This document shows positions 10,212 through 31,004 of a DNA stretch of 32,323 nucleotides, piece by piece. The stretch is from NCBI GenBank assembly GCA_035454825.1, contig DATIGG010000192.1, positions 1-32,323 on the forward strand, given 5' to 3'. Every line of letters starts with the position of its first letter. Position 1 is the stretch's first letter. The position numbers and the translations under genes are program-made. The notes under the pieces were generated by a model. The model did no database searches and had not been told where the DNA came from. It saw only the letters and a program-made list of their open reading frames with translations. The DNA comes from Thermodesulfobacteriota bacterium (GTDB lineage Bacteria > Desulfobacterota > BSN033 > UBA1163).

Positions 10212-10225
10212 AGACATCCTATAAA

Positions 10226-10260: not shown

Positions 10261-10273
10261 AGGAGGGAAAGGA

Positions 10274-11155: not shown

Positions 11156-11220
11156 GGGAAATAGGCAACAGGCAATAGGCAAAACAATTAACCATAGACG
11201 GTTGACGACAATCAGACAGG

Positions 11221-12000: not shown

Positions 12001-12035
12001 TTAAATTTTGAAATTTGAAATTAGGGTTTCGGGTA

Positions 12036-12830: not shown

Positions 12831-14230
12831 GGATGCCGATTCCGGTCCCGGAAGTCAGAATTGATGCTTCGAGTCATCTGAAGTGCCATCCAGCCAAGGA
12901 AAAGGACATGGTCAAAATCGACCTGCCCAAAGAGCGCGTCAGGGATTGGAAAGAGGCCATGCTGAAGAAGATGGCCGAGGTCCTCGATCGATACCGTTCG
13001 GTTCGACTCTTTCTCGACATTTGTGTAAAATGCGGCGCCTGTGCGGATAAGTGCCAGTTCTTTCTGGGGACCGGAGATCCGAAGAACATGCCTGTCGCAA
13101 GGGCCGATCTTTTAAGAAAAGTCTATAAACGTTACTTCACGCTGGGCGGAAAGATCTGGGGAAGGGCCAATGAGGCAGAAGAGCTGAATGAGAAAGTGAT
13201 TGAAGAATGGATGACCTACTTTTACCAGTGCAGCGAGTGCCGACGCTGCTCTGTCTTCTGCCCTTATGGGATCGATACGGCAGAGATCACCATGGCTGCA
13301 CGGGAGATCTTGGCCGCAGCCGGCTTCGCGACAAAGTATGTCACCGAAGTTGTGTCAAAGGTCTATGACACCGGGAATAACCTCGGCATCTGGCCGGCAG
13401 CATGGAAGGATATGTGCGCATTCATGGAAGAAGACCAGAAGGACCTTGAAGGAATTGACATCAAGTTTCCGGTCGATGCCATGGGCGCAGAGGTTCTTCT
13501 CATTCCTCCTTCTGCGGATATCTTCGTCAACACCAATACCATAATCGGTTATGCCAAGATGTTCCATGCTGCAGGCATCTCCTGGACGACCAGCACTTAC
13601 TGCAACGAAGGTGGAAATTTCGGTCTCTTCCTCAATTATGCAAACCTGAAGAAAATCAACAACCGGATCATAGAAGCAGCCCGTCAGCTCAAGGTCAAGA
13701 AGATTTATTGGGGCGAATGCGGGCACGCCTGGAGAGCGGGCTTGGCTTATACCCCCACCTTGAGCGGATCCATGGACTTTCTGGAGATCCCCTACCCGGT
13801 CCACCTCTGCGATCTGACCTGGAGCCTGATTTCGAAGGGGGCGTTTAAGATCGATCAATCAGCCAATGACGAGTTTATAGTCACCTATCATGATCCCTGC
13901 AATGTTGCCCGGGCGGCAGGATATGTTGAGTCTCCCAGGAATATCCTCAAGGCAACGTGCAATCATTTTGTGGAGATGCATCCGGACACGATACGAGAAA
14001 AGACATACTGTTGTGGCGGGGGCGGAGGGCTCCTTGCCGATGAGATCATGGAGATCCGCATGGCAGGAGGGAAGCCCCGGGCAGAAGCCTGCCGGGCAAG
14101 CGGAGCAAATTTCATGGCCACCCTATGCGCCATCTGTAAAGCGAACTTGCCAGAGGTGATGAAACACCACAAGGTGAATTGCCAGATCGGTGGCGTTCAT
14201 GACTTATTGGGAAGGGCCATTATTCTTTGA
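12827..14230 (+). CDS. HdrD / DsrK / TmcB-like iron-sulfur CCG-domain oxidoreductase
   Basis: 467 aa. Two ferredoxin-type motifs (CVKCGACADKCQF; CSECRRCSVFCPYG) and C-terminal CCG-type cysteines (YHDPCNVAR, TYCCGGGGG, CAICKANL). Confidence 0.85.
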   Translation: MRMPIPVPEVRIDASSHLKCHPAKEKDMVKIDLPKERVRDWKEAMLKKMAEVLDRYRSVRLFLDICVKCGACADKCQFFLGTGDPKNMPVARADLLRKVYKRYFTLGGKIWGRANEAEELNEKVIEEWMTYFYQCSECRRCSVFCPYGIDTAEITMAAREILAAAGFATKYVTEVVSKVYDTGNNLGIWPAAWKDMCAFMEEDQKDLEGIDIKFPVDAMGAEVLLIPPSADIFVNTNTIIGYAKMFHAAGISWTTSTYCNEGGNFGLFLNYANLKKINNRIIEAARQLKVKKIYWGECGHAWRAGLAYTPTLSGSMDFLEIPYPVHLCDLTWSLISKGAFKIDQSANDEFIVTYHDPCNVARAAGYVESPRNILKATCNHFVEMHPDTIREKTYCCGGGGGLLADEIMEIRMAGGKPRAEACRASGANFMATLCAICKANLPEVMKHHKVNCQIGGVHDLLGRAIIL

Positions 14231-14244
14231 ATGCGGATTGTCGA

Positions 14245-14592
14245 ATGCGAATTGCACCCTTTCTATTTCTGTGCATCCTTTTCTTGAACTGTCTTCTCGG
14301 TTGTCAGCAGGTTCAGAAGCCGGAGTTGAAAGGAGAGGGACCTCTTGCGGTTGTTGTGCCCCGGGGGTCGACTGCCCCTGAGTACCACGCTCCCATAGAG
14401 CGCTGGCGATCCTTTCATATGGAGGCGATCAACCAGGGAGACTTTACGCAGAGAGAGTGTGTGCTCTGTCACAACCCCAAAACAGGCTGCAATAAATGCC
14501 ATCAATATATAGGAGCAAAAGAGGTCTCTGTGCCTGAAGCCAATCTGTACTGGCCACCTCTCTCTCCTCCCCCTTTGACGCATAAGCGCTAA
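14245..14592 (+). CDS. small dihaem c-type cytochrome, predicted lipoprotein
   Basis: Signal peptide plus lipobox MRIAPFLFLCILFLNCLLG|C. Two CxxCH motifs sit five residues apart (CVLCHNPKTGCNKCH). Its last codons lie inside the left terminal repeat of the element at 14581-14913. Confidence 0.7.
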   Translation: MRIAPFLFLCILFLNCLLGCQQVQKPELKGEGPLAVVVPRGSTAPEYHAPIERWRSFHMEAINQGDFTQRECVLCHNPKTGCNKCHQYIGAKEVSVPEANLYWPPLSPPPLTHKR

Positions 14593-14965: not shown

Positions 14966-15439
14966 ATGATTGAGGGATCCGCGAAGCCAATGCCAGAAAA
15001 GAGCTCCCAGGTAGTCTCTGACATCCAGACCAGCCGTAGGACGCTCATGAAAGGGCTTCTTGGCTTTGTTGGAGCCCTGGGTCTGGGGAGTTTCGTGTAC
15101 GGGGCATACCGGTTCCTGGCTCCAGATGCTGGGGCTTATGCATCTGTTGAGATTTCTATCAATGACATCCCCACAGGAGGAACTTACCCGTTCCAGTTTG
15201 GCACTTCTCCCGGCCTTCTCCTCAGAGCAGAGGATGGGAGCTTGAAGGCCTTTTCACTGGTCTGCACTCATCTTGCATGCACAGTTAACTGGAATCCAGA
15301 GAAAAGGACCTTTTATTGTCCCTGCCACGACGGCCTTTTTGATGCCGAGGGTCACGTTATCAGCGGGCCTCCGCCTGCACCGCTGGAGCGGCTAAAGGTT
15401 GAGGTGAGGGGCGACAAAGTAATTGTTGGAGCTGCATAA
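14966..15439 (+). CDS. Rieske [2Fe-2S] subunit of a cytochrome bc / b6f-type complex, Tat-exported
   Basis: Twin-arginine signal SRRTLMKGLLGFVGALGLG. Rieske boxes CTHLAC and CPCHDG. SD is AAGGAAA. Confidence 0.9.
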   Translation: MIEGSAKPMPEKSSQVVSDIQTSRRTLMKGLLGFVGALGLGSFVYGAYRFLAPDAGAYASVEISINDIPTGGTYPFQFGTSPGLLLRAEDGSLKAFSLVCTHLACTVNWNPEKRTFYCPCHDGLFDAEGHVISGPPPAPLERLKVEVRGDKVIVGAA

Positions 15440-15446
15440 TTACAAA

Positions 15447-16799
15447 ATGGAGAAGGGACCTCAAAACAAAGTGAATGGAACTCGGATGAGAGAAGAGGTT
15501 CCTTCCTTTGACTTTATGACCCATTCCATCCGGGGGCTTTTTGGGCTCACCGTCTTCTCAGGAACCTTTCTCGCAGTCCATTATATCCCTGCCTTTAGTC
15601 AGGCTTTCTCCTCCGTGGTGCGGCTGAATGAGGAGGTGCCGTTTGGTTGGATGGCCCGGCGCCTCCACGCTGCAGGAGGAAGCCTTTTACTGATACTGTT
15701 TTTGTTTCATCTCTTGAGGGTTTTCTACTCCGGTGCGTACAAGGTGCGTCCCCGTATTGCCTGGGTCCTCGAAATCCTGTTGCTCTTTTACGCACTCTGG
15801 ACGAATTTCACCGGATCGGTCCTTCCCCTTTCTCAGGCTGCGTATTGGGGAGCAACCACGATTCTTTCAAACGTTTCATCCTTGCCCTGGGTCGGAAGGG
15901 TGATCGTTGAGTTTATCAGGGGTGGAAAGGAATTGGGCGGGGCTGCACTCGTCCGGTTTTACAGCATGCACGTAGGATTTTCAGTTCTGATTGGTTTGTT
16001 TCTTTTCTTTTACTATCGAATGGGATTGACCGGGAGAAAAGAGGGAAATGGTGCTTCGCCAGCTCAACATTTTGCAGTCGTTTCTGCAGTGACTGTTTTG
16101 CTTCTGGTCCTCACTACATTTGCGCCTGGATGGTTTATGGATTCGCTCAAAGAAGCAGCCAATCCAGCCCTCAATCCGGAGCGCATCTCTTTCCCCTGGT
16201 ATTTTCTTTTTTTGACTGAGACCCTTCCTCTCTTCAGCGCAGCTTATCCGTTCTGGTCCCTGCTTCTACTGGTGATCGTTCTTCTCTTGCTCTTTTTTCT
16301 TCCCTATCTGGATCGGAATCCCGAGCAGGGTCTACTGATCCGCCCCTTTGCCATGGCCCTTGCGGCGGCTTTCCTGGTTGCAGGCATCTATTTCAGCCTT
16401 GTTGGTTCCGCGAATGCCCGTTACGGTCGAGGAGTAGTTGTTCCCAATGACGGCCTGTCTCCGGTTGGAATGCGCGGAGCAAGGGTATTTGCGGAGAGGA
16501 ATTGTGCTTACTGCCATCAGATCGCAGGTAAGGGAGGAAGGCGGCAAGGACCGGATCTGACTGTAGTCACCTGGCGCGGCCGTTCCCGGGACTGGATCCA
16601 GCGCTTCATCTATAACGCCCGACTTTACCAGCCAGGCACTGCCATGCCCCGCTATGAGATTCCGCTCGATGACCTGGAGGCCTTGAGCGCTTATCTTTTA
16701 TCCCTGGACCCACGGAAAAAAACTTTTAGAATGGTTGATCGAACCCATTTCATGGATGTGAGCTTTTATCTCGAATCTCAGGCGGAAGGAAGAAGATGA
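15447..16799 (+). CDS. cytochrome b (b + subunit IV equivalent) fused to a C-terminal monohaem class-I cytochrome c domain
   Basis: Helix-B motif RRLHAAGGSLLLILFLFHLLR, the RFYSMH helix-D start and a PEWY-region equivalent ISFPWYFLF. The C-terminal domain has CAYCH ... GPDL ... GTAMP. The stop overlaps the sdhA-like start (ATGA at 16796-16799). Confidence 0.85.
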   Translation: MEKGPQNKVNGTRMREEVPSFDFMTHSIRGLFGLTVFSGTFLAVHYIPAFSQAFSSVVRLNEEVPFGWMARRLHAAGGSLLLILFLFHLLRVFYSGAYKVRPRIAWVLEILLLFYALWTNFTGSVLPLSQAAYWGATTILSNVSSLPWVGRVIVEFIRGGKELGGAALVRFYSMHVGFSVLIGLFLFFYYRMGLTGRKEGNGASPAQHFAVVSAVTVLLLVLTTFAPGWFMDSLKEAANPALNPERISFPWYFLFLTETLPLFSAAYPFWSLLLLVIVLLLLFFLPYLDRNPEQGLLIRPFAMALAAAFLVAGIYFSLVGSANARYGRGVVVPNDGLSPVGMRGARVFAERNCAYCHQIAGKGGRRQGPDLTVVTWRGRSRDWIQRFIYNARLYQPGTAMPRYEIPLDDLEALSAYLLSLDPRKKTFRMVDRTHFMDVSFYLESQAEGRR

Positions 16800-18514
16800 G
16801 CAAGCTCTCCGTTCCTGTTGTTCAGACTGACATTCTCATTCTTGGAGCGGGTGGAGCCGGTCTCTGCGCAGCTCTTCATGCGGCTGATTACGGGAAGAAA
16901 ATTAAGATCTTGATGGTTACAAAAGCCATTATCGGCAAAGGCGGATGCTCGCGCATGGTCCAGGGAGGATACAATGTGGTTCTTAATCCGGCTGACTCCT
17001 TTGAGAAACATTTTATCGACACCCTCAAAGGAGGGCAGTTCATCAATGACCAGGAGCTCGCCTGGACCCTGGTGACGGTTGCCCCTCAGCGGATCAAGGA
17101 GATGGAAACAAAGTACGGGTGTTTCTTCGATAGAAACCCGGATGGTACCATCCATCAGAAACCTTTTGCCGGACAGAGTTTTGACCGGACGGTCCACAAA
17201 GGAGACTTGACGGGCATCGAGATTGTTTCCCGTCTGTCTGAACAGGTATTTCGCAGAGAGATTGATTATCTGGATGAGCACCGTGCCATCGAACTCCTTT
17301 GGGACAAGGAGGGAACCCGGATCGTTGGAGCCTTGCTTCTCGATATGGATCGGGGAGAGTTTCTCATTGCCCATGCCCGTACAACGCTGATCTGCACAGG
17401 TGGAGGGCCGACGATGTATAAACTCTTTGCTCCCTCCCTGGATAAGTCAGCCGATGGCATCGCTGTCAGCTTTCGGGCAGGCGCCGAGATGGTGGATATG
17501 GAGATGGTTCAGTTTCACCCGACCGGGTTGATCGTCAAGGGGTCGAATACCTCCGGGACTCTGCTGGAAGAAGGTCTGAGAGGCTCCGGCGCTCAACTCT
17601 TTAATGTTCTTGGAGAACGCTTCATGGAACGGTATGCTCCGGATGTAAAGGAACGGGCCACCCGTGATGTGGTCTCACGAAGCAGTTTCATGGAGATCAT
17701 GGCTGGACGGGGGACTCCAAATGGAGGAGTGCTCATCGATGCCTCTGTCATGGGTCCTGAACTTGTGGAAAAAAATTTCCCGGGGATGGTCGAGCGCTGC
17801 CGGGATTATGGGTATGACCTGGCCCATGAACGCGTGGAGGTTTCTCCTACAGGCCACTTCTTTATGGGAGGCGTGAAGATTGACATCCGTTGCCATACGA
17901 ATCTCGATGGATTGTACGCCGCAGGCGAGGATTCCGGTGGAGTTCATGGAGCCAACCGTCTGGGAGGCAACGGCATTGCCGACTCCACAGTCTACGGAGG
18001 GATTGCCGGAGACACGATGGCCAATGAGGTCGTGGAAAGAGACCTGCCTCCTTTTGACGAAAAACAGATAGAGGAGATCATTCGGCAAGTGGAGGCGCCT
18101 CTGGGTCGAGAAGGAGGAGATCTTTATCCTCTTCGCGATGCTCTGCGGTTGAGCAACTGGGAGAAACTGGGGATCATCCGGGAAGAGAAAGGTTTGAGGG
18201 AAGGGCTCCAGACCATTCAGGAGTTGAAAGAGAAGCTGAATCAGGTGGGTATCGCAGGGGGCCGGGCCTGTAATATCGCGTGGAATGACTGGCTCAATCT
18301 GCGCAATCTTCTCGATGTTTCAGAGATGATCGGCCGGTCGGCCCTGGAGAGGAAAGAGTCCCGGGGCGCCCATTACCGGAGTGATTTTCCTAAAAAGGAT
18401 AACAGGAACTACTTAAGGAATTTCTTCATCAAGCGAGAGAGTGGAGAGATGAAGGTCTATGAGAGACCTGTGAATCTGAAACGCATGAAACCGGAAGATA
18501 TCGGTTTTGAATGA
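16796..18514 (+). CDS. sdhA: succinate dehydrogenase / fumarate reductase flavoprotein subunit-like (non-covalent FAD type)
   Basis: 572 aa. N-terminal DILILGAGGAGLCAAL, FHPTG, EEGLRGSG, GERFMERYAP, RDVVSR and ESRGAHYRSDFP. At the covalent-FAD position (consensus S-H-T-x-x-A-Q-G-G) it reads GCSRMVQGG. Confidence 0.9.
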   Translation: MSKLSVPVVQTDILILGAGGAGLCAALHAADYGKKIKILMVTKAIIGKGGCSRMVQGGYNVVLNPADSFEKHFIDTLKGGQFINDQELAWTLVTVAPQRIKEMETKYGCFFDRNPDGTIHQKPFAGQSFDRTVHKGDLTGIEIVSRLSEQVFRREIDYLDEHRAIELLWDKEGTRIVGALLLDMDRGEFLIAHARTTLICTGGGPTMYKLFAPSLDKSADGIAVSFRAGAEMVDMEMVQFHPTGLIVKGSNTSGTLLEEGLRGSGAQLFNVLGERFMERYAPDVKERATRDVVSRSSFMEIMAGRGTPNGGVLIDASVMGPELVEKNFPGMVERCRDYGYDLAHERVEVSPTGHFFMGGVKIDIRCHTNLDGLYAAGEDSGGVHGANRLGGNGIADSTVYGGIAGDTMANEVVERDLPPFDEKQIEEIIRQVEAPLGREGGDLYPLRDALRLSNWEKLGIIREEKGLREGLQTIQELKEKLNQVGIAGGRACNIAWNDWLNLRNLLDVSEMIGRSALERKESRGAHYRSDFPKKDNRNYLRNFFIKRESGEMKVYERPVNLKRMKPEDIGFE

Positions 18515-18864
18515 GGAGAGATGACATGGCGAATGGGAAGGAATGGATCTTAAGACGAGATGTGGGGGACCTGCGGGTTTGGCGAAGAACGCTTCCTGGA
18601 ATGTGGGCCTGGCTGCTTCAGAGGGTTTCAGCCATCCTTATTCTCCTCTTCCTCATCCTCCATTTCTTCTTCCCTTATCGCAGACCGCTCCAGTTTTTAC
18701 TCCTCCTCGTGGTAAGCTTCCATGCATCTCTGGGGATACGGGTCTTTCTGATCGACCTGGGAGCCAATGTGAAGACCCAGAAAATCCTCTTTGCTGTCTT
18801 TGTGCTGCTTGCTCTGTTTGGACTTTTTTTTGTGTGGAATTATCTACCCTTTGGGCAACGATAA
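18511..18864 (+). CDS. SdhC-like three-helix membrane anchor subunit
   Basis: 117 aa. WLLQRVSAILILLFLILH and SFHASLGIRVFLIDLG resemble the SdhC signature (..H/Q-R-.-S/T-G and H...GIR....D.G). There are three hydrophobic helices. It is ATGA-coupled to the sdhA-like gene. Confidence 0.65.
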   Translation: MRRDDMANGKEWILRRDVGDLRVWRRTLPGMWAWLLQRVSAILILLFLILHFFFPYRRPLQFLLLLVVSFHASLGIRVFLIDLGANVKTQKILFAVFVLLALFGLFFVWNYLPFGQR

Positions 18865-19090
18865 AATCCGAAGCACGAAATCCGAAATTCGAAACAATAT
18901 CAAATGACCAAAATTCGAAATTTCAACAAGAATTAAGATCGTAAAGAATGAAAAGTGAAGAAGTGCGGGAAAATGTCCGAACTTAATCCGGCATCCGAAA
19001 TGATCCATCAAGAAATAAGTTTGGTTTGGAAATTGTGACATTTGAATTTTGGATTTGTTTCGAGTTTCGATATTCGGATTTCGAGTTTTA
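18863..19090. repeat. two inverted, imperfect copies of a ~60-nt A/T-rich repeat (cgaaatccgaaattcgaaac...)
   Basis: The left copy is 18863-18926. The reverse complement of 19026-19090 reads ctcgaaatccgaatatcgaaac...tcaaatgtcacaatttcc. The cgaaatccgaa..tcgaaac core matches at about 20 of 22 positions. The copies are separated by about 100 bp. Confidence 0.55.
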
Positions 19091-19110
19091 AGGTTAACTG
19101 ATGGTGAGAA

Positions 19111-19854
19111 ATGATTTTTACATTTAAGATTTTTCGTTTCGATCCTAAAAAAGACACTGCGCCCTACGAACAGGAATTCCGTGTGGACCTCGGGGAGGAG
19201 GAAAAGGTTACCGTCCTCGATGCCCTCTTCAAGATCCAGCAAACCCAGGATAAGACGCTTTCCTTTCGTTACTCCTGCCGGCTCGCCATGTGCGGATCCT
19301 GTGCCCTGGTCATGAATGGAAGGGAAGGATTAGCCTGCAAAACCCTCGTTAAAAACTTGGGGACCGGGCCTATATCGCTTAAACCCCTGAGCCACCTTCC
19401 CATCATCAAGGATTTGACGGTGGACCTGAAATTTCTCATCAACCGGCTTAAGAGATTGGAGCCCTATTTCATTCCTAAGTCGCCGTCTCCTGAACCGGTC
19501 CAAATCAAACCGACCTCGAAAGAGCGGCAGACCATTGGCTTAAATACAGAGTGCATCGCTTGTGGGTCCTGTGTCTCAGCCTGCACGATGATGCACTGGG
19601 ATCCAGACTATATCGGACCCATGGGCTTGAATCGGGCCTTCTGCCTGATTGCTGACTCCCGGGACATGACAGGCAGCCGACTTGAAAAGATCTCTGATGA
19701 AAATGGGATTTATCGGTGTCACATGGAGTTTAACTGTACCGATGTCTGCCCGAAGCATATCAGTCCTACCCGGGGCATCCGTCATTTAAAGCGCCTCCTC
19801 TTCTGGGAGGGGATGAAAGAGTTGATCCCGTTTCGAAAGGACAAGCACGAATGA
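19111..19854 (+). CDS. sdhB: succinate dehydrogenase / fumarate reductase iron-sulfur subunit
   Basis: 247 aa. The 2Fe-2S motif is SCRLAMCGSCALVMNGREGLAC, the 4Fe-4S motif is CIACGSCVSAC and the 3Fe-4S motif is CHMEFNCTDVCP. Confidence 0.9.
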   Translation: MIFTFKIFRFDPKKDTAPYEQEFRVDLGEEEKVTVLDALFKIQQTQDKTLSFRYSCRLAMCGSCALVMNGREGLACKTLVKNLGTGPISLKPLSHLPIIKDLTVDLKFLINRLKRLEPYFIPKSPSPEPVQIKPTSKERQTIGLNTECIACGSCVSACTMMHWDPDYIGPMGLNRAFCLIADSRDMTGSRLEKISDENGIYRCHMEFNCTDVCPKHISPTRGIRHLKRLLFWEGMKELIPFRKDKHE

Positions 19855-22800
19855 GACCGGGACGTAAAGCGGTGCTTTTGATGGCCGGTTTGATTTTTTC
19901 CATGACGGTTTCTTCTCCGGCCTTTGCCAAGACCGCGGGATATTGTCTGGAATGCCACCCTAAGAAATTCATAGAAACCTTTTATCATCATTTCGAACAA
20001 TCCAATGGAGATAGCCGAAACGTTTACCAGATGAAGTTGGACCCGTGCCCTGGTCTCCGTTCTCTCTCCGAAGAACTTTTCTTTACAGAAAGCCGGATCG
20101 TCAAGCTGAATCAGATTCTCAGGACCCTCGAGCAGGATGGATGGAGTACGGATGGCCTCAAGAAAGGGGTCGCCGAATCCGCAGGATCTTTTTCTGAATT
20201 GAAAGAGTACGAGAAGGTTTCCATCCAGCAATTTACAAGAGAGGCATCGGCTATCCGAACAGTCCTCCAGAAGGTTTATGATCGTACCCTCCAGTCCAGA
20301 GGCGAAACGAGCCGGCGTTGCCTGATCGGGCTTGGGGCTCTCTTTTTTCTTGGGCTCCTGATCCTCATCGGGTTGGGATATCGAAAACTTGGCCGTATGG
20401 GAAGATCTCTGCTCGTCAGTTTCGTCATCGGAGGGATGTTTTCCTTAACAGCCTGCACTCCTTCACCTTCAGAACGCGAGAAGAGCCCTGGCCAGGAACG
20501 TTTGGAACAGTCGCTTTCTCTTGCGACCGAGATAACCCGTCAGATGGAAGAGACTTTTAATCAGTCCTGTCTCCTCGCGGAGATGAGCCGGGAATGGTCA
20601 AAGATGGAGCCCGCGTCTGCCAAAAGAGGGTTCCAGCTTGCCTGGCATCTATCCATGGCTGCTCGTGAAAAGGCTGGCGAGATCAAGCCTCTGAAGGAGT
20701 TGGCCCTGCAATGGACCGATCGGTCAAAGGCTTCTAAAGAGAAGATCGATTCCGATACGGTCCTTGATTTGCGCGATGAGCTTTGGAATTCGGAAGGCCG
20801 TACATGGGCACTCCGGACCATCGCAGAGGAATGGGTCCAGGTGAATCCGAAGGCTGGACGTTCTGCCCTGGAATTGGCCACGAAAGAGGCTCTGGCGATG
20901 GAGGATCTTGAAGTCCGGGACCGGGAGCTCAAGTCGATTTCTGAGGCATGGGCTGGAATCGATGAGATTCGCTCCCTTGAGGTCTCTCACTTCATTAAGG
21001 ATCCTTTCTTAAAGGCCCTGACACTGGCCCGTGTTGCCCTCTCTGTAAACGGTAAAGACAAGGGCGGAAATCTTTTGCGGGAAGCCTGGCAGGTGGCTGA
21101 AAGCATTCCACCGTCTTATTCCCAATCGAAAGCCATGATTCAGGTTTCTGTCACTGCAGCCAAGCTCTTCCCTCAAGAGAAGAACACCTGGATGGATCGA
21201 GTCCTCCTCAGAATACAAAATTTGAAGCCGGAGCAATTGAAAGCGTTTGCACTCCAAGGACTGGTTTTTCATTGGGTCTCTCTGGATATCGAGCAGGCAA
21301 AGCGCCTGGCGATGGAGATTCCACCTGCGTATCCTGAAGAAAGGGCCTATGCATTGATCCACCTGGCAAAAAATAAAGGGAACTCTAAGGTCAAAGCCTT
21401 GACCCTGTTGAAAGAGGTTTCTGCGGAGATGGTCAAAATCTCTGATCCCTTCATAGCCCAGAAGGTGAAGGGATTGATCGCAAAGGAACTGGCCATTATT
21501 GAACCCCGAGAAGCTTTTCAAATCCTTCCACAGATTGAAGACCCTTTTTATCGTTCTGAAATCCTTGGAGCCTTGGCACTGAGGATTTCGAGCACGGACA
21601 AAAGGAAAGCCCTTGAACTGGCTGAGCGGATTCCCCTTGAGTTTTTTCGCATACAGAGCGCTGTTGCCATCATCCGTCAATGGATGGACCGAGAACAGGA
21701 AAGAGTGAATGCTCTCCATCAGGAAGCCTTTCAGGCGGCCACAACGATTGCGGATCCTTATTCCAGGGCCTTGATCCTGATCGAACTGGGTAAGAGCTGG
21801 GGCCGAATCGATCGAAGGAAAGAACTGAAGTTATTAGAGATGGCCCTGGGCTCGGCAGAGAAAATCTCATCCCCATGGATGAAGGCCGAAAGCATTGAGG
21901 CTCTCTCAGAGGCAATGAAGAATTCTGATAAGGCAAGGGCCCAGGCTTTAATCGATGGGATGGAACCTTCTGTCTTTCGCAGCCGCAAATCCTTGGAGGA
22001 AGTTCGAAGATGGGCACCTGTCGATCCAGAAAAGGCAAAACAGTTGGCTGAAGCGTTTCCACCCCATTTCCCCATGGAGAAGGCAATGGCCTTCAAAGAG
22101 GCTGCCGGAGGTTTCAAAAAAGGGCAACCTCTGTTAGCCTTCGATCTCTGCTGGAGGGCGATCGACCAGGTCTTGATGTTACCTGAGGAGCATAAGGGCA
22201 GAAAATTGCTATCTTCACTGGTCACAGAGGCCGCCAGACTCAACAAGGAAGGAACCTTGCAGAGACTTCTTCAAATCTCCAAATCAGACACGAGAGACAT
22301 TCTCCTCAAAGAAGCAGGGAGCTTTTGGGCCCAGGAAGATCCTTCCTTTGCCTTGAAAGCAGCCGGGGAGATTTTAGAAGGGTCCTTGCGGTTCGTTCTT
22401 TATCAGAAGATTGCCGCCCATGAAGCCAAAAAACTTTCACGTCCGGGAAAGTCTGGAACGGAACAGCCAGTCTCTCTCGCATTTTCCCAGTGGGGCTTGG
22501 GAAGAGAAAAAGCAAAGAAGGACGAATCGCAGGCCGTCCCCTATTATGAAAAAACCCTTCAAGAAATCAAAAAAATGAAGGACCTTAAAGAACGATCCTA
22601 TCTCCTTGGAGGTTTGGCTGCGGAATGGGCAACGGTCGACGAGGAAAAGGCCCTCAAGATCGCTGAAGAGGTCCCCTCCGAATTTTCCGAGTCTCTTTCC
22701 TTTAGCCTCTTACAGATTGGAATCCAGTTGAAAAAATGGAACCGGAAAGGAGCAGAGGCTCTGTTTCAAAAAGCTGTTTCATCGGCCGTTCAGATCCGGG

Positions 22801-23456
22801 ACCATAGACTTAGGGGCCGGAGGCTTTTCCAGATCGGCCACCAATGGCAAGGGATCGACAAGGGAAAAGGGAAAGAAGTCCTGATAATGGCTGAGAATGA
22901 AGTCCGGAAGAGCGTCTCCTCTCCTGAAAAAGGAGATCCCCTTCTTACAGAGGTGCTTGTCGCCCGATTGAGAACGGATCCTCAAAGCCTCTTAAAGATA
23001 TTTCAAAATACGGACCCACCCGTCCTTCGGGCAAAGGTCTTTCTCGAGCAGGGTAAGATCGAGACCAAAGAAGTTCTCGAAGAAAATATCAAGACCTTGG
23101 AAAAAGCCTTCCAATACGCTCAGAAAACAAAGCAGCCACGTCTCCTGAGGGAGGCTGCTCTTGCATGGTATGCTCTCGATCCTGACAGAGGGATTGAAAT
23201 GACGGGTCAGATCGAATCGAGAGAAATCCGGGTAAAGACCCTTTGCCAGATGGCACGAAGGAATGGTCCTTTGCGGGAAGAAGAATCGAAACATCTCCTG
23301 GAGAGAACTTTTCAGGAGGCCATCCTGATCCCCGGGCTGACAGAAAGGATCAAGGCATTAAAGGCGATTGCTGAAACGGGGATGGTTGTTGATAAGGAGC
23401 AAGCAAAAGCCATTTATCAAATGACCTATCGAATGATTGAAAAGACTTCGTTTTAG
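19851..23456 (+). CDS. 1201-aa monohaem c-type, membrane-anchored alpha-helical repeat protein of unknown function
   Basis: ATGA-coupled to sdhB. It has a signal peptide (..SSPAFA|K), a single CxxCH (CLECH) followed by YHH, a TM helix (CLIGLGALFFLGLLILIGLGY) and a second hydrophobic stretch ending in a lipobox-like LTAC. About 1000 aa of repeats follow, each centred on ..(I/L)A..W...D(P)..A..LA..IP... Confidence 0.8.
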   Translation: MRPGRKAVLLMAGLIFSMTVSSPAFAKTAGYCLECHPKKFIETFYHHFEQSNGDSRNVYQMKLDPCPGLRSLSEELFFTESRIVKLNQILRTLEQDGWSTDGLKKGVAESAGSFSELKEYEKVSIQQFTREASAIRTVLQKVYDRTLQSRGETSRRCLIGLGALFFLGLLILIGLGYRKLGRMGRSLLVSFVIGGMFSLTACTPSPSEREKSPGQERLEQSLSLATEITRQMEETFNQSCLLAEMSREWSKMEPASAKRGFQLAWHLSMAAREKAGEIKPLKELALQWTDRSKASKEKIDSDTVLDLRDELWNSEGRTWALRTIAEEWVQVNPKAGRSALELATKEALAMEDLEVRDRELKSISEAWAGIDEIRSLEVSHFIKDPFLKALTLARVALSVNGKDKGGNLLREAWQVAESIPPSYSQSKAMIQVSVTAAKLFPQEKNTWMDRVLLRIQNLKPEQLKAFALQGLVFHWVSLDIEQAKRLAMEIPPAYPEERAYALIHLAKNKGNSKVKALTLLKEVSAEMVKISDPFIAQKVKGLIAKELAIIEPREAFQILPQIEDPFYRSEILGALALRISSTDKRKALELAERIPLEFFRIQSAVAIIRQWMDREQERVNALHQEAFQAATTIADPYSRALILIELGKSWGRIDRRKELKLLEMALGSAEKISSPWMKAESIEALSEAMKNSDKARAQALIDGMEPSVFRSRKSLEEVRRWAPVDPEKAKQLAEAFPPHFPMEKAMAFKEAAGGFKKGQPLLAFDLCWRAIDQVLMLPEEHKGRKLLSSLVTEAARLNKEGTLQRLLQISKSDTRDILLKEAGSFWAQEDPSFALKAAGEILEGSLRFVLYQKIAAHEAKKLSRPGKSGTEQPVSLAFSQWGLGREKAKKDESQAVPYYEKTLQEIKKMKDLKERSYLLGGLAAEWATVDEEKALKIAEEVPSEFSESLSFSLLQIGIQLKKWNRKGAEALFQKAVSSAVQIRDHRLRGRRLFQIGHQWQGIDKGKGKEVLIMAENEVRKSVSSPEKGDPLLTEVLVARLRTDPQSLLKIFQNTDPPVLRAKVFLEQGKIETKEVLEENIKTLEKAFQYAQKTKQPRLLREAALAWYALDPDRGIEMTGQIESREIRVKTLCQMARRNGPLREEESKHLLERTFQEAILIPGLTERIKALKAIAETGMVVDKEQAKAIYQMTYRMIEKTSF

Positions 23457-23735: not shown

Positions 23736-24203
23736 ATGAAGGACACCCGGAGCTACAATCGTGTTTCCGCCATTTTTTTTCTGTTTGTTGGTGTCTTCTT
23801 TACCCTCTATGCCCGGAAAGTGGAGATCGGAACCTGGACAGAACCAGGCCCTGGATTTTTGCCTTTCTGGGCAGGATTAACCCTTACAGCCATGTCAATC
23901 GCCCTCCATATAGGAAGTTATGCGAAAAAGACCTGGCAGGCCAGGTCCTCTTTCTTCCCCCAACCCGATTCCTGGAAGAGGGTCCTGGCAACCTTCCTTT
24001 CGCTGGTTGTCTATAATATCCTCCTGACCATCTTTGGTTTTACGATCACAACCTTTCTCTTTTTGCTCTTTCTGGTCAAATTCATCTTTCCTCAGACCTG
24101 GAAGAGGACATTGACCGTTTCCATCTGCGGGTCCCTCTTTGCCCGGTTGCTCTTCATCAATTTTTTAGAAACGCAACTTCCGAAGGGATTTCTCGGTTTT
24201 TAG
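23736..24203 (+). CDS. tctB: tripartite tricarboxylate transporter small membrane subunit (TctB family)
   Basis: 155 aa with 4 TM helices. It lies immediately upstream of tctA. The N-terminal pattern is R.S.IFFLFVGVFF..YA. Confidence 0.75.
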   Translation: MKDTRSYNRVSAIFFLFVGVFFTLYARKVEIGTWTEPGPGFLPFWAGLTLTAMSIALHIGSYAKKTWQARSSFFPQPDSWKRVLATFLSLVVYNILLTIFGFTITTFLFLLFLVKFIFPQTWKRTLTVSICGSLFARLLFINFLETQLPKGFLGF

Positions 24204-24210
24204 GCGCCCT

Positions 24211-25728
24211 ATGGATATCTTAAGCCACCTGGCCCTTGGAGCCCAGGTCATTTTTCAGCCTGTCAATCTTTTTTTCTGTTTTCTGGGCGTCCTCATGGGG
24301 ACCCTGGTCGGTGTGCTTCCGGGTCTTGGTCCGACGGCAGCCATTGCCTTACTCCTTCCCAATACATTCCATGTCTCCCCGGTGACAGCCATCATCATGC
24401 TCGCAGGCATCTATTATGGCGCCATGTATGGCGGATCGACGACCTCCGTCCTGGTTAATATTCCTGGAGAGGCGGCCTCGGTGATTACCTGCCTCGACGG
24501 GTATCAGATGGCCCGGAAGGGCCGCGCAGGTCCGGCTCTGGGGATCGCTGCTTTTGGGTCTTTTATTGCCGGCACGGTATCGATCATCGGACTCATGCTT
24601 GTTGCTCCGCCTCTGGCGAAGTTTGCCCTGGCCTTCGGGCCACCCGAGTATTTCAGTCTGATGCTTCTTGGCATTATTATCCTGATCTATTTGGCCTCGG
24701 GGTCAATCCTGAAGGCGCTGATGATGTTTGTCTTTGGATTATTGCTGAGCACCATTGGGATGGACTGTATTTCCGGCACCCAGCGTCTGACCTTTGGTGT
24801 CCTCGAACTCTGTGACGGGGTAGGCCTGATTCCTGCCATCATGGGCCTCTTCGGCGTGGCTGAGGTTATTGCCAATGTGGAAGAGACCATGAAGAGGCAG
24901 GTGATTGCTACCCGGGTCAAAAATCTCTTGCCCAATCTCCGGGACTGGAAGGACTCTTTCTGGCCGATCATCCGGGGTTCTGTCCTTGGTTTCTTCATCG
25001 GCATCCTTCCAGGGCCGGCGCCCGTTATTTCTTCTTTCAGTTCTTACGCCATCGAGAAAAAACTTTCAAAACACCCTGAAAAATTTGGGACAGGTGTCAT
25101 TGAAGGCGTTGCCGGTCCGGAATCTGCCAATAACGCAGCTACGGGAGGAGCTTTCATTCCTCTTTTTACTTTAGGCATTCCGGTAAATTCGGTCATTGCC
25201 ATTCTCCTGGGAGCCTTCATGATCCATGGCATTCAACCAGGTCCCATGATCATCACGAAACATCCGGACCTATTCTGGGGAACGGTCATGAGCATGTATT
25301 TAGGAAATGCTATGCTCTTGGTTCTCAATCTTCCCCTCATCGGCCTCTGGGTGCAGGTCCTGAGAGTCCCTTATCCTATTCTCTTTCCGCTCATTCTTCT
25401 TTTCTGTCTGGTCGGGGTTTACAGCCTCAATTACAGCCTGGTTGAGATTAGCCTGATGATCGGATTTGGGGTTTTCGGGTATTTAGCAAGAAAATTTCAG
25501 TTTGAGATGGCTCCCCTTGTTCTTGCCATCGTGATCGGGCCGATGATGGAGAACAACTTGCGCCTCTCCCTGGTCATCTCTCAAGGAAATCCTATGATCT
25601 TCCTCACCCATCCTATCTCGGCAGTATTTATTGGCATCACACTGGTGTTGTTGTTATCTCCTTTTGTTCCATGGATAGGGAGGCGGCGCCAAAAGCTTCA
25701 AGAGAAGGTCGAAGGAGAAGGAGTCTAA
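24211..25728 (+). CDS. tctA: tripartite tricarboxylate transporter large permease (TctA family)
   Basis: 505 aa, polytopic. GVLPGLGPTAAIALLLP, GAMYGGSTTSVL.NIPGE and GILPGPAPVISSF are typical TctA segments. Confidence 0.9.
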   Translation: MDILSHLALGAQVIFQPVNLFFCFLGVLMGTLVGVLPGLGPTAAIALLLPNTFHVSPVTAIIMLAGIYYGAMYGGSTTSVLVNIPGEAASVITCLDGYQMARKGRAGPALGIAAFGSFIAGTVSIIGLMLVAPPLAKFALAFGPPEYFSLMLLGIIILIYLASGSILKALMMFVFGLLLSTIGMDCISGTQRLTFGVLELCDGVGLIPAIMGLFGVAEVIANVEETMKRQVIATRVKNLLPNLRDWKDSFWPIIRGSVLGFFIGILPGPAPVISSFSSYAIEKKLSKHPEKFGTGVIEGVAGPESANNAATGGAFIPLFTLGIPVNSVIAILLGAFMIHGIQPGPMIITKHPDLFWGTVMSMYLGNAMLLVLNLPLIGLWVQVLRVPYPILFPLILLFCLVGVYSLNYSLVEISLMIGFGVFGYLARKFQFEMAPLVLAIVIGPMMENNLRLSLVISQGNPMIFLTHPISAVFIGITLVLLLSPFVPWIGRRRQKLQEKVEGEGV

Positions 25729-25739
25729 TGTCCCATGCC

Positions 25740-25990
25740 CGGGGGCACCCCTGCCTGCGCCAAGGCTTCGGCAGGCAGGCTCGAACCATGAAAATTGATA
25801 ACCCCCCACTGTTCCCCCCTTAATTTAAGGGGGGATGAAGGGGGGTTAGAGTTGCGGTTACGAAGCCCGTTTCGTTTAGTGTCAATGGGTTACGTCAAGT
25901 TCTAAGGACCAATCCCGCCTATAGCGGGATAACCGAATGACGATACCGGCCCCGAACCTAATATGGTACAGGGCGGGTGCCGTAACCGTT
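25740..25990. repeat. cluster of REP-like hairpins
   Basis: cctgcctgc (25750-25758) pairs with gcaggcagg (25771-25779). cccccctta (25814-25822) pairs with taagggggg (25826-25834). There is also cccgcctatagcggg. Confidence 0.45.
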
Positions 25991-26022
25991 GGACGAAACC
26001 TTTTTCTAACTAAGAAAGGAGA

Positions 26023-26994
26023 ATGAAGATGAAGCACTGGAAACAGATGGTCGTTGTCTTAGTTATTCTTTCTGCGCTTTGCATCCCCGCATGGGCTCAG
26101 GATTTTCCAAAGGGACCGGTTAATTACATGAATCCCTTCAACCCGGGTGGAGAGGTGGACATTGCTGCCCGGGCCATGCAGCCTTACATCGAGAAAAACC
26201 TGGGAGTTCCCTTTGTCATCCAGTATCTTCCCGGCGCGGGGGGAGCCCTCTGCTGGTCAAAACTGGCTGCAGCTAAGCCGGACGGGTACACGATCGGGGG
26301 ATTCAGCATCCCTCACATCATTCTCCAACCCATGTTCATGAAGGATGTCGCTTTCAAGACTGACGATTTCGTTATCCTTTCTATTGTGGAGTATACCCCC
26401 ATCGGGTTGGCTGTGAAGAAAGGTTTCAAGGCCTCGACGGTGAAGGAGTTTATCGAATATGCCAAGGCGAACCCTGGAAAGGTTTCCTGCGGAGGGGTTG
26501 GAAAGTTTACAGGCCATCATTTTGCCGCATTACAATTCATGAAGATGGCGGGGATCAAACTCAATTACGTAACCTTCACCGGGACAGCCCCTATGCAGAC
26601 GGCGCTGATGGGTGGCCATATCGATGCGGTTTTCTCCAATTCGACCATGATGGTGAGCAGCGGGGAAGAGATCAAAGTGCTTGCCATCGGGTCTGAGAAA
26701 CGAATGGGTCAGCTTGCTGATGTTCCCACGTTCAAAGAATTGGGGATGGAATTCTACCCCCGTATTGCACGGGGTGCCATGGCGCCCAAGACTGTCCCCA
26801 AGGATATCATGAAACGGCTCGAAAAGGCCTTTCTGGATACAACCTCAAAACCTGATTTTAAAGCCAAGATGGAGGCGGCGGGCTTTGTGCCCCAGGTCTG
26901 GGGAATTGAGGAGTCCCAGAAATATCTCGATTCTGAAGCAAAGCTTCTCAATAAATTGATCCAGGAGTTCGACCTATTATCGACGAAGAACTAG
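26023..26994 (+). CDS. tctC: TctC/Bug-family periplasmic solute-binding protein, copy 1
   Basis: Signal peptide ending AWA|QDFPKGP. PFNPGGEVD, LPGAGGAL, KPDGYT and FTGTAP are typical Bug/TctC motifs. The second ATG (26029) is better spaced from the AAGGAG SD. Confidence 0.85.
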   Translation: MKMKHWKQMVVVLVILSALCIPAWAQDFPKGPVNYMNPFNPGGEVDIAARAMQPYIEKNLGVPFVIQYLPGAGGALCWSKLAAAKPDGYTIGGFSIPHIILQPMFMKDVAFKTDDFVILSIVEYTPIGLAVKKGFKASTVKEFIEYAKANPGKVSCGGVGKFTGHHFAALQFMKMAGIKLNYVTFTGTAPMQTALMGGHIDAVFSNSTMMVSSGEEIKVLAIGSEKRMGQLADVPTFKELGMEFYPRIARGAMAPKTVPKDIMKRLEKAFLDTTSKPDFKAKMEAAGFVPQVWGIEESQKYLDSEAKLLNKLIQEFDLLSTKN

Positions 26995-27122
26995 GTTCGC
27001 CCCACTGTTCTTCTCCCTCGAGAGAACTGTGTTGTAACAGGGGAAGCCCTGGAATATGTCATGATAGACCTTGGGCTGAACTTTTGATTCAGCATCTACA
27101 TGGCGACATAACTCCTGTTTAG

Positions 27123-27215
27123 TTTGTCATCCCGGACTTGATCCGGGATCCAGTGTATTTCTGGATTCCCGCTGGAGTTCAGCCCATACTTGATACGGGG
27201 CCGGAATGGCACCAT
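27123..27215. repeat. REP-like element
   Basis: tcccgga-cttga-tccggga hairpin (27130-27148) followed by ctggattcccgctgg... The track's long ORF start at 27138 reads through it. Confidence 0.5.
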
Positions 27216-27299
27216 TTGCTGCGATTAATCTGGCTGTGTATAGTTTTTGATAATACAGATATTTTTAACATTACGTTCTGCTCAGGAAGGAGGTTTCAC

Positions 27300-28262
27300 A
27301 TGAAAAAAGTTTTCTGGTCGCTTATGGTGGTCGTGTTTTGTCTTTTCTCAACCCTCGCAATGGCGGCAGCCGATTTTCCGAAAGGGCCCATCACCTATAT
27401 TATCCCTTTCAATCCAGGGGGACAGTCTGATGTGGAAGCCCGCTTGCAACAGCCTCACCTCGAAAAGATCCTGGGAGTGCCTATTGTTGTCAATTACCTG
27501 CCCGGGGCAGGGGGGGCTTTGGCCTGGACAAAATTTGTTCAGATGAAGCCGGATGGATACTCGGTTTGCGGGATCAACATTCCCCATATCATCCTTCAGC
27601 CCCTTTCCCAGAAGGATGCAAATTTTAAGACGGAAGAGCTGAAACCCCTGTGCCTCTTTGAATCGACTCCCATCGGCCTGGCCGTGAAGAAAGATTCAAA
27701 AATCAACACCCTAAAAGAGTTTATCGATTTCGCAAAGGCCAATCCCGGAAAGATCACGGTCGGGATCTCCGGAAAATTCTCCGGACACCATATGGCCTCT
27801 CTCCAGTTCATGAAGATGACGGATACGAAGCTGACCCTGGTCACCTTCACGGGAGCGGCCCCGCAGGTGACAGCACTCCTGGGCGGTCATGTAGAGGCCA
27901 TCTGGGGAAATTCGTCGGACTTGGTCGGCTATCATGACCAGATGAAAATCCTGGCCATCGGCACGGAAAAACGGTTGGATACCCTCAAGGATGTATCGAC
28001 CTTCCAGGAACAGGGGATGAAATTTTACCCGCGAATCGATCGGGGTGTCGCCGTTCCGAAGGATACGCCGGCAGAGATCACTGAAAAGCTGGAGAAGGCC
28101 TTTCTTGATACCGTGAAGATGGAGGACTATCATTCCAAGATCGTGAAAGCAGGGTTTGTCCCCATGGGGCTAAACAGCCAGCAGTCGATCAAATATATTG
28201 CCGAACAGACGGAGATCTTTAAGAAGCTTCTGGCCGAGCACAACCTTCTCCTGCAGAAGTAG
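27300..28262 (+). CDS. tctC: TctC/Bug-family periplasmic solute-binding protein, copy 2 (tandem paralog)
   Basis: The ATG at 27300 is preceded by GGAAGGAGG. Signal peptide MKKVFWSLMVVVFCLFSTLAMAAA|DFPKGP. It is collinear with copy 1 over the whole length (PFNPGGQSD, LPGAGGAL, KPDGYS, FTGAAP). Confidence 0.85.
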   Translation: MKKVFWSLMVVVFCLFSTLAMAAADFPKGPITYIIPFNPGGQSDVEARLQQPHLEKILGVPIVVNYLPGAGGALAWTKFVQMKPDGYSVCGINIPHIILQPLSQKDANFKTEELKPLCLFESTPIGLAVKKDSKINTLKEFIDFAKANPGKITVGISGKFSGHHMASLQFMKMTDTKLTLVTFTGAAPQVTALLGGHVEAIWGNSSDLVGYHDQMKILAIGTEKRLDTLKDVSTFQEQGMKFYPRIDRGVAVPKDTPAEITEKLEKAFLDTVKMEDYHSKIVKAGFVPMGLNSQQSIKYIAEQTEIFKKLLAEHNLLLQK

Positions 28263-29715: not shown

Positions 29716-30951
29716 TCAATAATCCCAGCACCCTGGGCAAGCGTCGTTGCTGCCTGGTGGAAAGATGATCTGACCTCGGATTTCACCTCCTGGATTGTTT
29801 CCTGTATGAATATTGACATACAGTAGATGGGCTACTAATGCGGTGAGTTGATCTGTGGTGAGGACAGTCCCCGCCGGGACTGTCCATTCCCCCGCGGTTA
29901 CACCTAATCCGCCCTCTAGGGGGATGATCACAGGACCCGGTACTCCAGCAGCGCCTTGATGGATATGTGCCGCCGTTGCATTGCCTGAAAGCCCAGTGAA
30001 ATCGACCCTTCCACTGATCGCCCCGGTATTGGTGATAATGAAAACAGCATTTCCACTTCCTGTTGTGACAACGGGGGGTACCTCCTGATCACCACTTAGG
30101 GTCGTTGTTATCACAACGACGTTCTGAACAGGGGTCAATGTGGCTCTGAAATTTGCGCTAAAAACAAATTCCCCATCGGAGGCTCCTCCTCCAATACTCC
30201 CATTCAGGCTGATGGAGACCACGGCTCCAGAGCTCTTCTTCAGTGAGCCCTTGGAATTGATAAAGAAAGGTCCTGTTTTATTTCCCCCGGTCACGGGTCT
30301 TGAAGAATCCCCTGCGCCCACCAGGAGAAGTTGATCGGTCGTGCTCCTTGTGCTAAAGGTCCTTATAAAAGAAGCATCCAAGGCACAGAATGTTGTACCA
30401 TCATCGCCTGAGAATTTAACAAAGCAACCTTCTTCGTCGGCCAGTAAGGAATCTCCTTTAAAGATTAACTTAATTGTCCCGGTAAAGGGTTGCGTCGTGG
30501 AAGTGAATTTTTGATTCCCGGTGGCATCCGGTGGAGTCGTTGAGGTGAATTTGATGGAGAAAGAGGCAGGACCACTAAAGAGTGTTTGGTTTTGTGTGGG
30601 TTGGCTGCCGACGACAACGGTACCTACCATTCCGATAAGACAATGGGGTGTACAAATATAGGGGAATGTCCCTGCTGTATCAAATACACGCTCAAAGGTC
30701 TGATTAGGATTCAGGAATCCTGAATCCCATATTCCATCGGGAGTACAGCCTGTTCCACTTGTGCTTGTATGCTGAACCCCAGTGGTTGTTTTGTTCTCCC
30801 ATTTTACCGTGTCGCCCGGATTAATGTGGACAATCGGCGGGTCAAAAGCAAAATCTTTCATGTCTACCGTGATGACTGCTGAATAAGAACTTGCTACGGA
30901 GAAAGATAAGAACGTGATCAGTGACAATGCAAACAAGGTCAACTTTTTCAT
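29716..30951 (-). CDS. secreted fusion protein: N-terminal type-1 copper cupredoxin domain, unknown beta-rich middle region, C-terminal CHRD domain
   Basis: AAGGAGGA SD before the ATG at 30951. Signal peptide MKKLTLFALSLITFLSFSVASSYSA. The copper ligand pattern is H(TSTSG) ... YICTPHCLIGMVG. CHRD signatures are LSGDQEVPPV, ATAAHIHQGAAGVPGPVI and YVNIHTGNNPGGEIRGQI. The C-terminal tail is ..ACPGCWDY. Confidence 0.8.
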   Translation of the reverse strand: MKKLTLFALSLITFLSFSVASSYSAVITVDMKDFAFDPPIVHINPGDTVKWENKTTTGVQHTSTSGTGCTPDGIWDSGFLNPNQTFERVFDTAGTFPYICTPHCLIGMVGTVVVGSQPTQNQTLFSGPASFSIKFTSTTPPDATGNQKFTSTTQPFTGTIKLIFKGDSLLADEEGCFVKFSGDDGTTFCALDASFIRTFSTRSTTDQLLLVGAGDSSRPVTGGNKTGPFFINSKGSLKKSSGAVVSISLNGSIGGGASDGEFVFSANFRATLTPVQNVVVITTTLSGDQEVPPVVTTGSGNAVFIITNTGAISGRVDFTGLSGNATAAHIHQGAAGVPGPVIIPLEGGLGVTAGEWTVPAGTVLTTDQLTALVAHLLYVNIHTGNNPGGEIRGQIIFPPGSNDACPGCWDY

Positions 30952-31004
30952 TTTAAAATCCTCCTTACTTTTAGATTTTAGTGGGTTGATATTCAAAATC
31001 TCCA

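Follow-up and report, generated by a model that had tools for sequence, protein, structure and literature searches.

We describe here a protein of 1201 amino acids that is encoded in a 32,323-nucleotide stretch of DNA from a Thermodesulfobacteriota bacterium (contig DATIGG010000192.1 of assembly GCA_035454825.1, positions 1 to 32,323 of the forward strand; this whole stretch is referred to as the window). The gene lies at 19851-23456 on the plus strand, and its start codon overlaps the TGA stop codon of sdhB as ATGA at 19851-19854, with an AAAGGA Shine-Dalgarno-like box upstream. Sequence comparisons place the protein in an unnamed conserved family in which a Sec-exported monohaem c-type cytochrome module is joined to a periplasmic alpha-solenoid.

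Architecture of the 1201-residue protein and its homologues

A search of 5.8 billion proteins returned 90 homologue clusters, nearly all of 1170-1230 amino acids and 28-63% identity, from metagenome-assembled genomes (MAGs) of Deltaproteobacteria, Syntrophaceae and Thermodesulfobacteriota; all of these long forms are annotated as hypothetical. An exhaustive profile search gave 3536 matches among 1.84 billion representatives and, beyond the long form, three groups were prominent: (i) short fused forms, (ii) stand-alone lipoprotein solenoids and (iii) STAND NTPases. The short forms, of ~700-770 amino acids and mainly from Chloroflexota/Anaerolineae MAGs, have the same N-terminal module and transmembrane (TM) hairpin with a shorter solenoid. 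A profile of the N-terminal module only returned 8 proteins, a yield restricted by the candidate prefilter. In two further loci, the protein is split into two genes as described below. Sequence and profile searches of Pfam, NCBIfam and PDB gave no family for any part of the protein in any subfamily. The following features were recognised in the gene:

19851-23456, plus strand: whole open reading frame, 1201 amino acids plus stop codon, last gene of the conserved operon
19851-19928, plus strand: Sec type I signal peptide, residues 1-26, with the cut predicted after AFA (AFA/K), read from the sequence
19944-19958, plus strand: haem c attachment motif C32-L-E-C35-H36, invariant across long, short and split forms
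20046-20051, plus strand: invariant C66-P67; C66 is, judging by conservation, the candidate distal haem ligand
20049-20318, plus strand: antiparallel three-helix stalk, residues 67-156, continuing into the first TM helix (AlphaFold2 (AF2) model mff06a31f8ddc, mean predicted local distance difference test score (pLDDT) 83)
20319-20378, plus strand: first TM helix (TM1), residues 157-176, out-to-in, a hydrophobic stretch present in all homologues
20379-20408, plus strand: residues 177-186, YRKLGRMGRS, a short cytoplasmic loop of basic character that serves as n-region for the internal signal
20409-20456, plus strand: second TM helix (helix 2) or internal lipoprotein-type signal, residues 187-202, ending S-L-T-A-C202
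20457-23453, plus strand: periplasmic alpha-solenoid, residues 203-1201, ~55 helices (AF2 model m1f1ef09e6d4a, pLDDT ~90)
20562-23423, plus strand: 13 copies of a 31-residue repeat core, found with an iterated repeat hidden Markov model (HMM)

The context of the predicted signal peptide cleavage site is repeated among homologues as A-x-A/K-[TP]-A-G-[YF]-C, and each of the 79 long homologues with a complete N-terminus has a single CxxCH. The motif C32-x-x-C35-H36 comes after a Sec signal peptide, which is the pattern of a CxxCH motif in an exported domain by which c-type cytochromes are recognised. Across long, short and split forms only C32, C35, H36 and C66 are invariant in the N-terminal module, with the invariant Cys 27-34 residues downstream of CxxCH, and T79, R136, K141 and Y143 are nearly invariant. 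Because neither a Met nor a second His is conserved in the alignments of these forms, C66 is the best candidate for the distal ligand, and we infer that haem c is bound via C32 and C35 with H36 as the proximal and C66 as the distal ligand, giving a low-potential His/Cys haem as in DsrJ. Y-H-H (H46, H47) and M61 were considered as haem ligands and rejected since these residues vary among homologues.

The N-terminal module was modelled separately as residues 27-210 with 63 diverse sequences as input. In this second AF2 model the stalk helices lie at model residues 41-69, 75-93 and 99-154. A Foldseek search with it returned just generic helix bundles, all at E > 0.4, and no match to a known cytochrome c domain or fold was found in Pfam, NCBIfam, the PDB profile search or this Foldseek search.

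The first AF2 model covers residues 27-1201 and was built from 29 sequences; its mean pLDDT is 83.6 overall, and over residues 213-1201 it is all-helical with a mean pLDDT of ~90. The helices pair into an alpha-solenoid, and Foldseek of the full model against PDB retrieved generic TPR/HEAT solenoids only (Ski3, IFT-A, CAND1 and karyopherins; probability 1.0, TM-scores < 0.2). The sole match in the PDB sequence profile search was 3zpj, the archaeal alpha-solenoid TON_1535, with E = 5e-5 over ~90 residues. None of the Pfam repeat models (TPR, HEAT, Sel1) passes, with weak TPR_12 matches in just 2 of 29 members. The repeat HMM was built from ten seed windows and then iterated over the family; it finds its 13 copies starting at residues 238, 317, 356, 465, 543, 568, 639, 710, 815, 915, 988, 1097 and 1169, compared with a mean of 0.005 copies in 200 shuffles, and its consensus is RARLLRELAREWAKIDPEKALEILEKIPDEF. 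The same 31-residue repeat type occurs in the C-terminal arrays of five STAND NTPases with NB-ARC, NACHT or TIR domains (P0127, P0131, P0132, P0135, P0136) at E = 1e-40 to 1e-53; these arrays have no match to a Pfam model.

An initial annotation of the window, made from the sequence alone, had anticipated much of this architecture. The reading frame with its ATGA overlap is real, and the cleavable signal peptide, the one CxxCH (CLECH), the TM helix and the basic loop are all borne out by sequence and homologues; the "at least a dozen" degenerate repeats number 13, the unrecognised family has stayed without a name in the databases searched, and the HEAT/TPR-like solenoid agrees with the all-alpha model and the top Foldseek matches. 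The periplasmic placement also holds in prediction, both large domains being assigned to the periplasm and held by a helical hairpin. Two details did not survive: the "Cys pair" in DPCPG is one Cys only, C66, and the Y-H-H after CxxCH is not conserved.

The internal lipoprotein-type signal

The second helix of the hairpin reads as a lipoprotein signal peptide, as had been proposed. The sequence RKLGRMGR-SLLVSFVIGGMFS-LTAC202 has a basic n-region, then a hydrophobic h-region and finally a lipobox of the type [LVI][ASTVI][GAS]C. In 79 of 79 N-terminally complete long homologues the sequence before helix 2 is basic and [GAS]-Cys closes helix 2, and the residue at +2 is Ser in 65 and Thr in 8 of them; of 63 long forms for which net charge was scored, 62 have +2 to +5 ahead of the h-region. 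Moreover, in the stand-alone solenoids P0128, P0130, P0146 and P0213 the stretch that aligns with helix 2 is a genuine N-terminal lipoprotein signal peptide. In the precursor described here the signal begins at residue 177 and not at the N-terminus, where bacterial lipoprotein signals are placed; it is N-terminal in split and stand-alone forms only. An internal translation start at M183 was considered and rejected: many homologues have L, W, F or I at this position, and there is thus no conserved internal start codon.

Natural variants of the gene bear on the origin of this arrangement. In L072 (a Chloroflexota MAG, GCA_023475225.1) and in L074, two overlapping genes replace the single fused gene. 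The product of the first, 196-200 amino acids long, has a signal peptide, carries GN(N/Y)C(V/A)ECH and IPC(Q/D)P and, after its helices, closes with one C-terminal TM helix and a basic tail of a few residues. The product of the second is a lipoprotein (LLSSC, LALSC) whose sequence runs on as the solenoid. Similarly, the stand-alone solenoid-only lipoproteins begin at profile positions 177-186, i.e. at the start of helix 2. In total, three architectures are found: (i) split, (ii) fused with the lipobox kept, which comprises all long forms plus P0147 and P0208, and (iii) fused without the Cys, which comprises most Chloroflexota-type forms. The split versions support the earlier idea that a small haem-anchor protein and a lipoprotein were joined, the event being either a fusion or a fission, and they suggest that the internal lipobox still works in long forms.

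Because all the hallmarks of a lipoprotein signal are retained in helix 2 of each of the 79 long forms, we think that, on balance, C202 is likely to be lipidated and the long forms to be cleaved by signal peptidase II. Alternatively, helix 2 is a plain second TM helix, C202 is neither lipidated nor cut and the protein remains one polypeptide of 130 kDa. We regard this as a serious possibility, short of an even chance. Most short-form hairpins end without a Cys (FSLPIFR), which means that the family as a whole can do without cleavage. Of the 79 long homologues, 63 satisfy the strict PROSITE lipobox core and 16 miss it, mostly via Asn at -2, and no report of the processing of an internal lipoprotein signal or an internal lipobox was found in the literature searched. 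Against the uncleaved hairpin stand the [GAS]-Cys kept by all 79 long forms, 73 of which have Ser or Thr at +2, the basic loop before their helix 2, and the fact that the equivalent position is a genuine lipoprotein signal in split and stand-alone forms.

Gene neighbourhoods of the family

DsrMK(JOP) serves as the terminal membrane complex in the dissimilatory reduction of sulfite and sulfate, and DsrMK-like proteins are encoded next to the family in both long-form and short-form loci. In the window, the gene for the 1201-residue protein is preceded by the following genes:

9522-11826, plus strand: GntR/FCD regulator and class I fumarase alpha and beta subunits, start of the operon
12015-12830, plus strand: DsrM-like (NarI-type) dihaem b membrane protein, Pfam Nitrate_red_gam
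12827-14230, plus strand: DsrK-like iron-sulfur/CCG protein, NCBIfam DsrK at 538 bits against a cut-off of 400
14227-14592, plus strand: small dihaem c-type cytochrome lipoprotein of 121 amino acids, with LLGC, CVLCH and CNKCH
14966-15439, plus strand: Rieske [2Fe-2S] protein, Pfam Rieske
15423-16799, plus strand: cytochrome b with a fused C-terminal monohaem cytochrome c domain
16796-19854, plus strand: sdhA, a 117-amino-acid sdhC-like anchor and sdhB, an insertion specific to the long-form subfamily

The order fumAB-dsrM-dsrK-dihaem c-Rieske-cytochrome b-sdhACB followed by the family gene is kept in all 11 long-form loci with enough upstream sequence, down to 28% identity, and DsrM, DsrK, the dihaem lipoprotein, Rieske, cytochrome b, SdhA/B and FumA are all present in each of them. 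Since the downstream genes differ between loci, the family gene is the last conserved gene of the operon. The presence of fumarase and sdh genes suggests that the module is wired to succinate/fumarate turnover in these Thermodesulfobacteriota.

Several observations can be added on these genes. The sdh genes are in the order A-C-B with one 117-residue anchor, within an operon that joins a DsrMK module, a Rieske/cytochrome b complex, Sdh, fumarase and a GntR regulator. Among the papers searched, some of them represented by title and abstract, no description was found of the combination of a DsrMK module, a Rieske/cytochrome b complex and Sdh, or of a DsrMK-Rieske cluster. The 121-residue dihaem lipoprotein, with the motif PEYHxP..W..H..C..CHNP..C..CH.YVG, is kept beside dsrK in every locus type; its NCBIfam matches are weak and far under cut-off, and it appears to be another unannotated mini-cytochrome. 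Just upstream of the operon, at 4322-9386, are genes for ComA ((2R)-phospho-3-sulfolactate synthase) and a LarA-like protein on the minus strand and for a TauE/SafE sulfite exporter on the plus strand, neighbours that hint at organosulfonate or sulfite metabolism. The operon is followed, after a 280-bp gap in which a scan found no terminator, by genes for TctB, TctA and two TctC proteins of a tripartite tricarboxylate transporter (23736-28262, plus strand). Further downstream (29716-31008, minus strand) is a gene for a 430-residue protein in which a plastocyanin/azurin-type cupredoxin domain is fused to a CHRD domain.

The short forms lie in dsr clusters. The Chloroflexota-type order is dsrA-dsrB-dsrC-dsrM-dsrK-dihaem c-Rieske-molybdopterin oxidoreductase-FeS-NrfD-(TM protein of 45-52 amino acids)-family gene-dsrM2-dsrK2-ferredoxin-dsrN, in which FeS is an iron-sulfur protein. 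Other orders are dsrABDC-dsrMK-dihaem-Rieske-cytochrome b6-subunit IV-family gene (L022), dsrD-dsrC-dsrMK-dihaem-Rieske-family gene (L019) and, without Rieske, dsrMK-dihaem-61-residue protein-family gene (L020). Two traits recur in the Chloroflexota/Anaerolineae-type dsr clusters of L015, L018, L021 and L030-L067: the Rieske gene lies directly upstream of the molybdopterin oxidoreductase-FeS-NrfD trio, and there are two DsrMK pairs, an 'a' type of 240-290 amino acids and a 'b' type of 215-236 amino acids. In L016 (3268-14222) the family member follows a complete dsrC-dsrT-dsrMKJOP, with two small flanking ferredoxins, and lies opposite tusA-dsrEFH-like genes; a true DsrJ and a family member can therefore be present side by side.

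Among the 15 short-form loci with at least 6.5 kb of upstream sequence, which are non-independent samples and a biased set in that they were retrieved by patterns derived from a single subset of close relatives, all 15 encode DsrK and the dihaem lipoprotein, and Rieske and DsrM are found in 14 each. In contrast, sdh is confined to the 11 long-form loci and found in none of the other locus types, and is therefore a lineage-specific insertion between cytochrome b and the family gene. Depending on the locus, the start codon of the family gene overlaps sdhB, the dihaem gene, cytochrome b subunit IV or the 61-residue protein. Thus, the link to upstream respiratory genes made in the initial annotation stands for DsrMK, the dihaem lipoprotein and usually Rieske, and its tie to sdhB is limited to the long Thermodesulfobacteriota subfamily; likewise, the co-occurrence with Rieske/cytochrome b and sdh that it proposed to look for is complete among long forms and extends to the short forms for Rieske and not for sdh. 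DsrK is encoded near the family gene in every sampled locus of sufficient length. The constant partners of the family in the lineages sampled are DsrM/DsrK-like proteins, the dihaem c lipoprotein and, usually, Rieske.

A possible relay to DsrMK and its relation to known systems

Combining the architecture of the protein with its gene neighbourhoods, we lean towards the view that it is a periplasmic haem c subunit, probably His/Cys-ligated, that functions as an electron relay and a scaffold in a previously undescribed DsrMK-Rieske module, and that signal peptidase II may divide it into two polypeptides. In this model, the protein would be exported by Sec and lose its signal peptide before haem is attached at C32/C35 with H36 as the proximal ligand; TM1 would stop transfer, the basic loop would remain in the cytoplasm and helix 2 would restart export of the solenoid. 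Lipidation of C202 by Lgt would then be followed by a cut just before this residue by signal peptidase II, which would yield a hairpin-anchored cytochrome (residues 27-201) and a lipoprotein of 1000 residues in equimolar amounts. The haem module and the dihaem lipoprotein would make up a periplasmic relay of three haems between a quinol-oxidising unit, i.e. Rieske/cytochrome b in the window and the molybdenum-FeS-NrfD unit in Chloroflexota, and the haems of DsrM, from which electrons would pass on to DsrK and its cytoplasmic disulfide or trisulfide substrate. The solenoid would act as a protein-binding docking scaffold for periplasmic partners. In DsrMKJOP the reported route is from DsrP via DsrO, DsrJ and DsrM to DsrK, and the haems of DsrJ, one of them with Cys/His ligation, pass electrons from DsrOP to DsrM (preprint 10.64898/2026.08.25.746951); the pair of monohaem protein and dihaem lipoprotein would thus be the functional counterpart of DsrJ(OP).

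Several observations count against this proposal, in addition to the bias in the sampling of short-form loci. The protein has no similarity in sequence or fold to DsrJ, cytochrome c1 or any solved cytochrome in NCBIfam, PDB profile and Foldseek searches, and its haem-binding region is short and only moderately confident in the AF2 model, with pLDDT of 58-76. There is no dsrAB or dsrC within 10 kb of the long-form loci. Finally, the DsrM-like protein of the window scores 166 bits with the NCBIfam DsrM model, under the cut-off of 300, and is without the loop insertions present in a DsrMKJOP-type DsrM; with these two traits it may be able to oxidise quinol by itself, without a periplasmic donor.

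A more specific version of the model is that the gene encodes a respiratory polyprotein processed by LspA into a His/Cys monohaem cytochrome and a 1000-residue lipoprotein scaffold, within a DsrMK-dihaem-Rieske/cytochrome b module that replaces DsrJOP and is hard-wired to succinate dehydrogenase/fumarate reductase. We put this forward tentatively, as possible and less than probable. Given Ser or Thr at +2, the lipoprotein scaffold might be sorted to the outer membrane.

Three other functions were considered. The protein could be an assembly factor, i.e. a maturation chaperone like CcmH/CcmI or NrfG that would handle apocytochromes through its Cys motif and bind them with its solenoid. Its topology recalls NrfG and E. 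coli CcmH, the latter a fusion of CcmH and CcmI, in having a periplasmic helical domain with a Cys motif, two TM helices and a periplasmic TPR-type domain, and unusual small c-type cytochromes are encoded in the operon. Nevertheless, the motif is always the CxxCH haem-attachment signature and not the LRCxxC of CcmH, no match to Pfam CcmH or TPR_CcmH_CycH was obtained, and PDB searches gave no match to CcmH in sequence or fold, which leaves no detectable homology and makes a chaperone unlikely.

The ATGA overlap with sdhB and the position of sdhACB immediately upstream in all long-form loci could instead point to an extra periplasmic or membrane subunit of the adjoining succinate dehydrogenase/fumarate reductase. 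We find this quite unlikely: relatives in other lineages have no nearby sdh and overlap other upstream genes, and the catalytic subunits of Sdh face the cytoplasm whereas both large domains of the protein described here are predicted to be periplasmic. That C32, C35, H36 and C66, as exactly four invariant ligand-type residues in a region for which AF2 confidence is low in the cofactor-free loop, bind a metal ion or cluster instead of haem is very unlikely, given that a CxxCH motif in a domain exported by Sec is the standard site of haem c attachment, that adjacent Cys and His rarely chelate one ion, and that neighbouring genes encode other c-type cytochromes, for which a maturation system is to be expected.

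Together with the dihaem lipoprotein and Rieske, this family is a conserved component of the dsr clusters of Chloroflexota/Anaerolineae MAGs that has until now gone unannotated, and it occurs also in an sdh-Rieske/cytochrome b-DsrMK operon of Thermodesulfobacteriota; it bears on the question of what replaces DsrJOP in organisms that lack DsrJOP. If the protein is a subunit of such a module, it would represent a new way of feeding electrons to DsrMK, linking quinol oxidation at a Rieske centre to the reduction of sulfur or disulfides. Moreover, the conserved internal lipobox and the natural split versions provide a clean system for asking whether a polyprotein can be a substrate of type II signal peptidase.

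A parallel for such processing is FbcH of Bradyrhizobium, a cytochrome b-c1 polyprotein in which one open reading frame gives rise to two respiratory polypeptides, split at an internal signal peptide in a 1:1 stoichiometry. FbcH is cut by type I signal peptidase, whereas the internal signal of the 1201-residue protein is of the lipoprotein (type II) kind and its cleavage is a prediction.

Among c-type cytochromes, cytochromes c1 and f are like the split form in having a signal peptide, a periplasmic haem domain and a C-terminal TM anchor, and the gene has the same position after Rieske and cytochrome b(6)/subunit IV in L022 and L072. They differ in that the family has no similarity to Pfam Cytochrom_C1 or Apocytochr_F or to PDB entries and no conserved Met or N-terminal amine ligand, and the cytochrome b of the window already bears its own fused cytochrome c domain. 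The solenoid, in turn, shares its fold class with TON_1535 and the generic TPR/HEAT solenoids, but its repeat core, R-x3-L-x2-IA-x2-W-x3-D-x3-A-x2-LA-x2-IP, is of its own type.

DsrJ, like the haem module, is a periplasmic, membrane-tethered c-type cytochrome encoded with dsrMK, and a conserved Cys of DsrJ ligates one of its haems (10.64898/2026.08.25.746951), a role that the invariant C66 would have here. DsrJ is a trihaem protein, and the dihaem lipoprotein and the monohaem protein likewise sum to three haems. In contrast to DsrJ, the protein has one CxxCH instead of three and no match to the NCBIfam DsrJ model (NF038038) at E <= 1, the anchor of the haem module is C-terminal rather than N-terminal, and a TM hairpin and a solenoid of 500-1000 residues are added. 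In total, these comparisons suggest that the protein, although it has no match to the family models of DsrJ or cytochrome c1/f, is an unannotated cytochrome-scaffold subunit that resembles membrane-anchored c-type cytochrome subunits such as DsrJ and cytochrome c1/f combined with a TPR-like scaffold.

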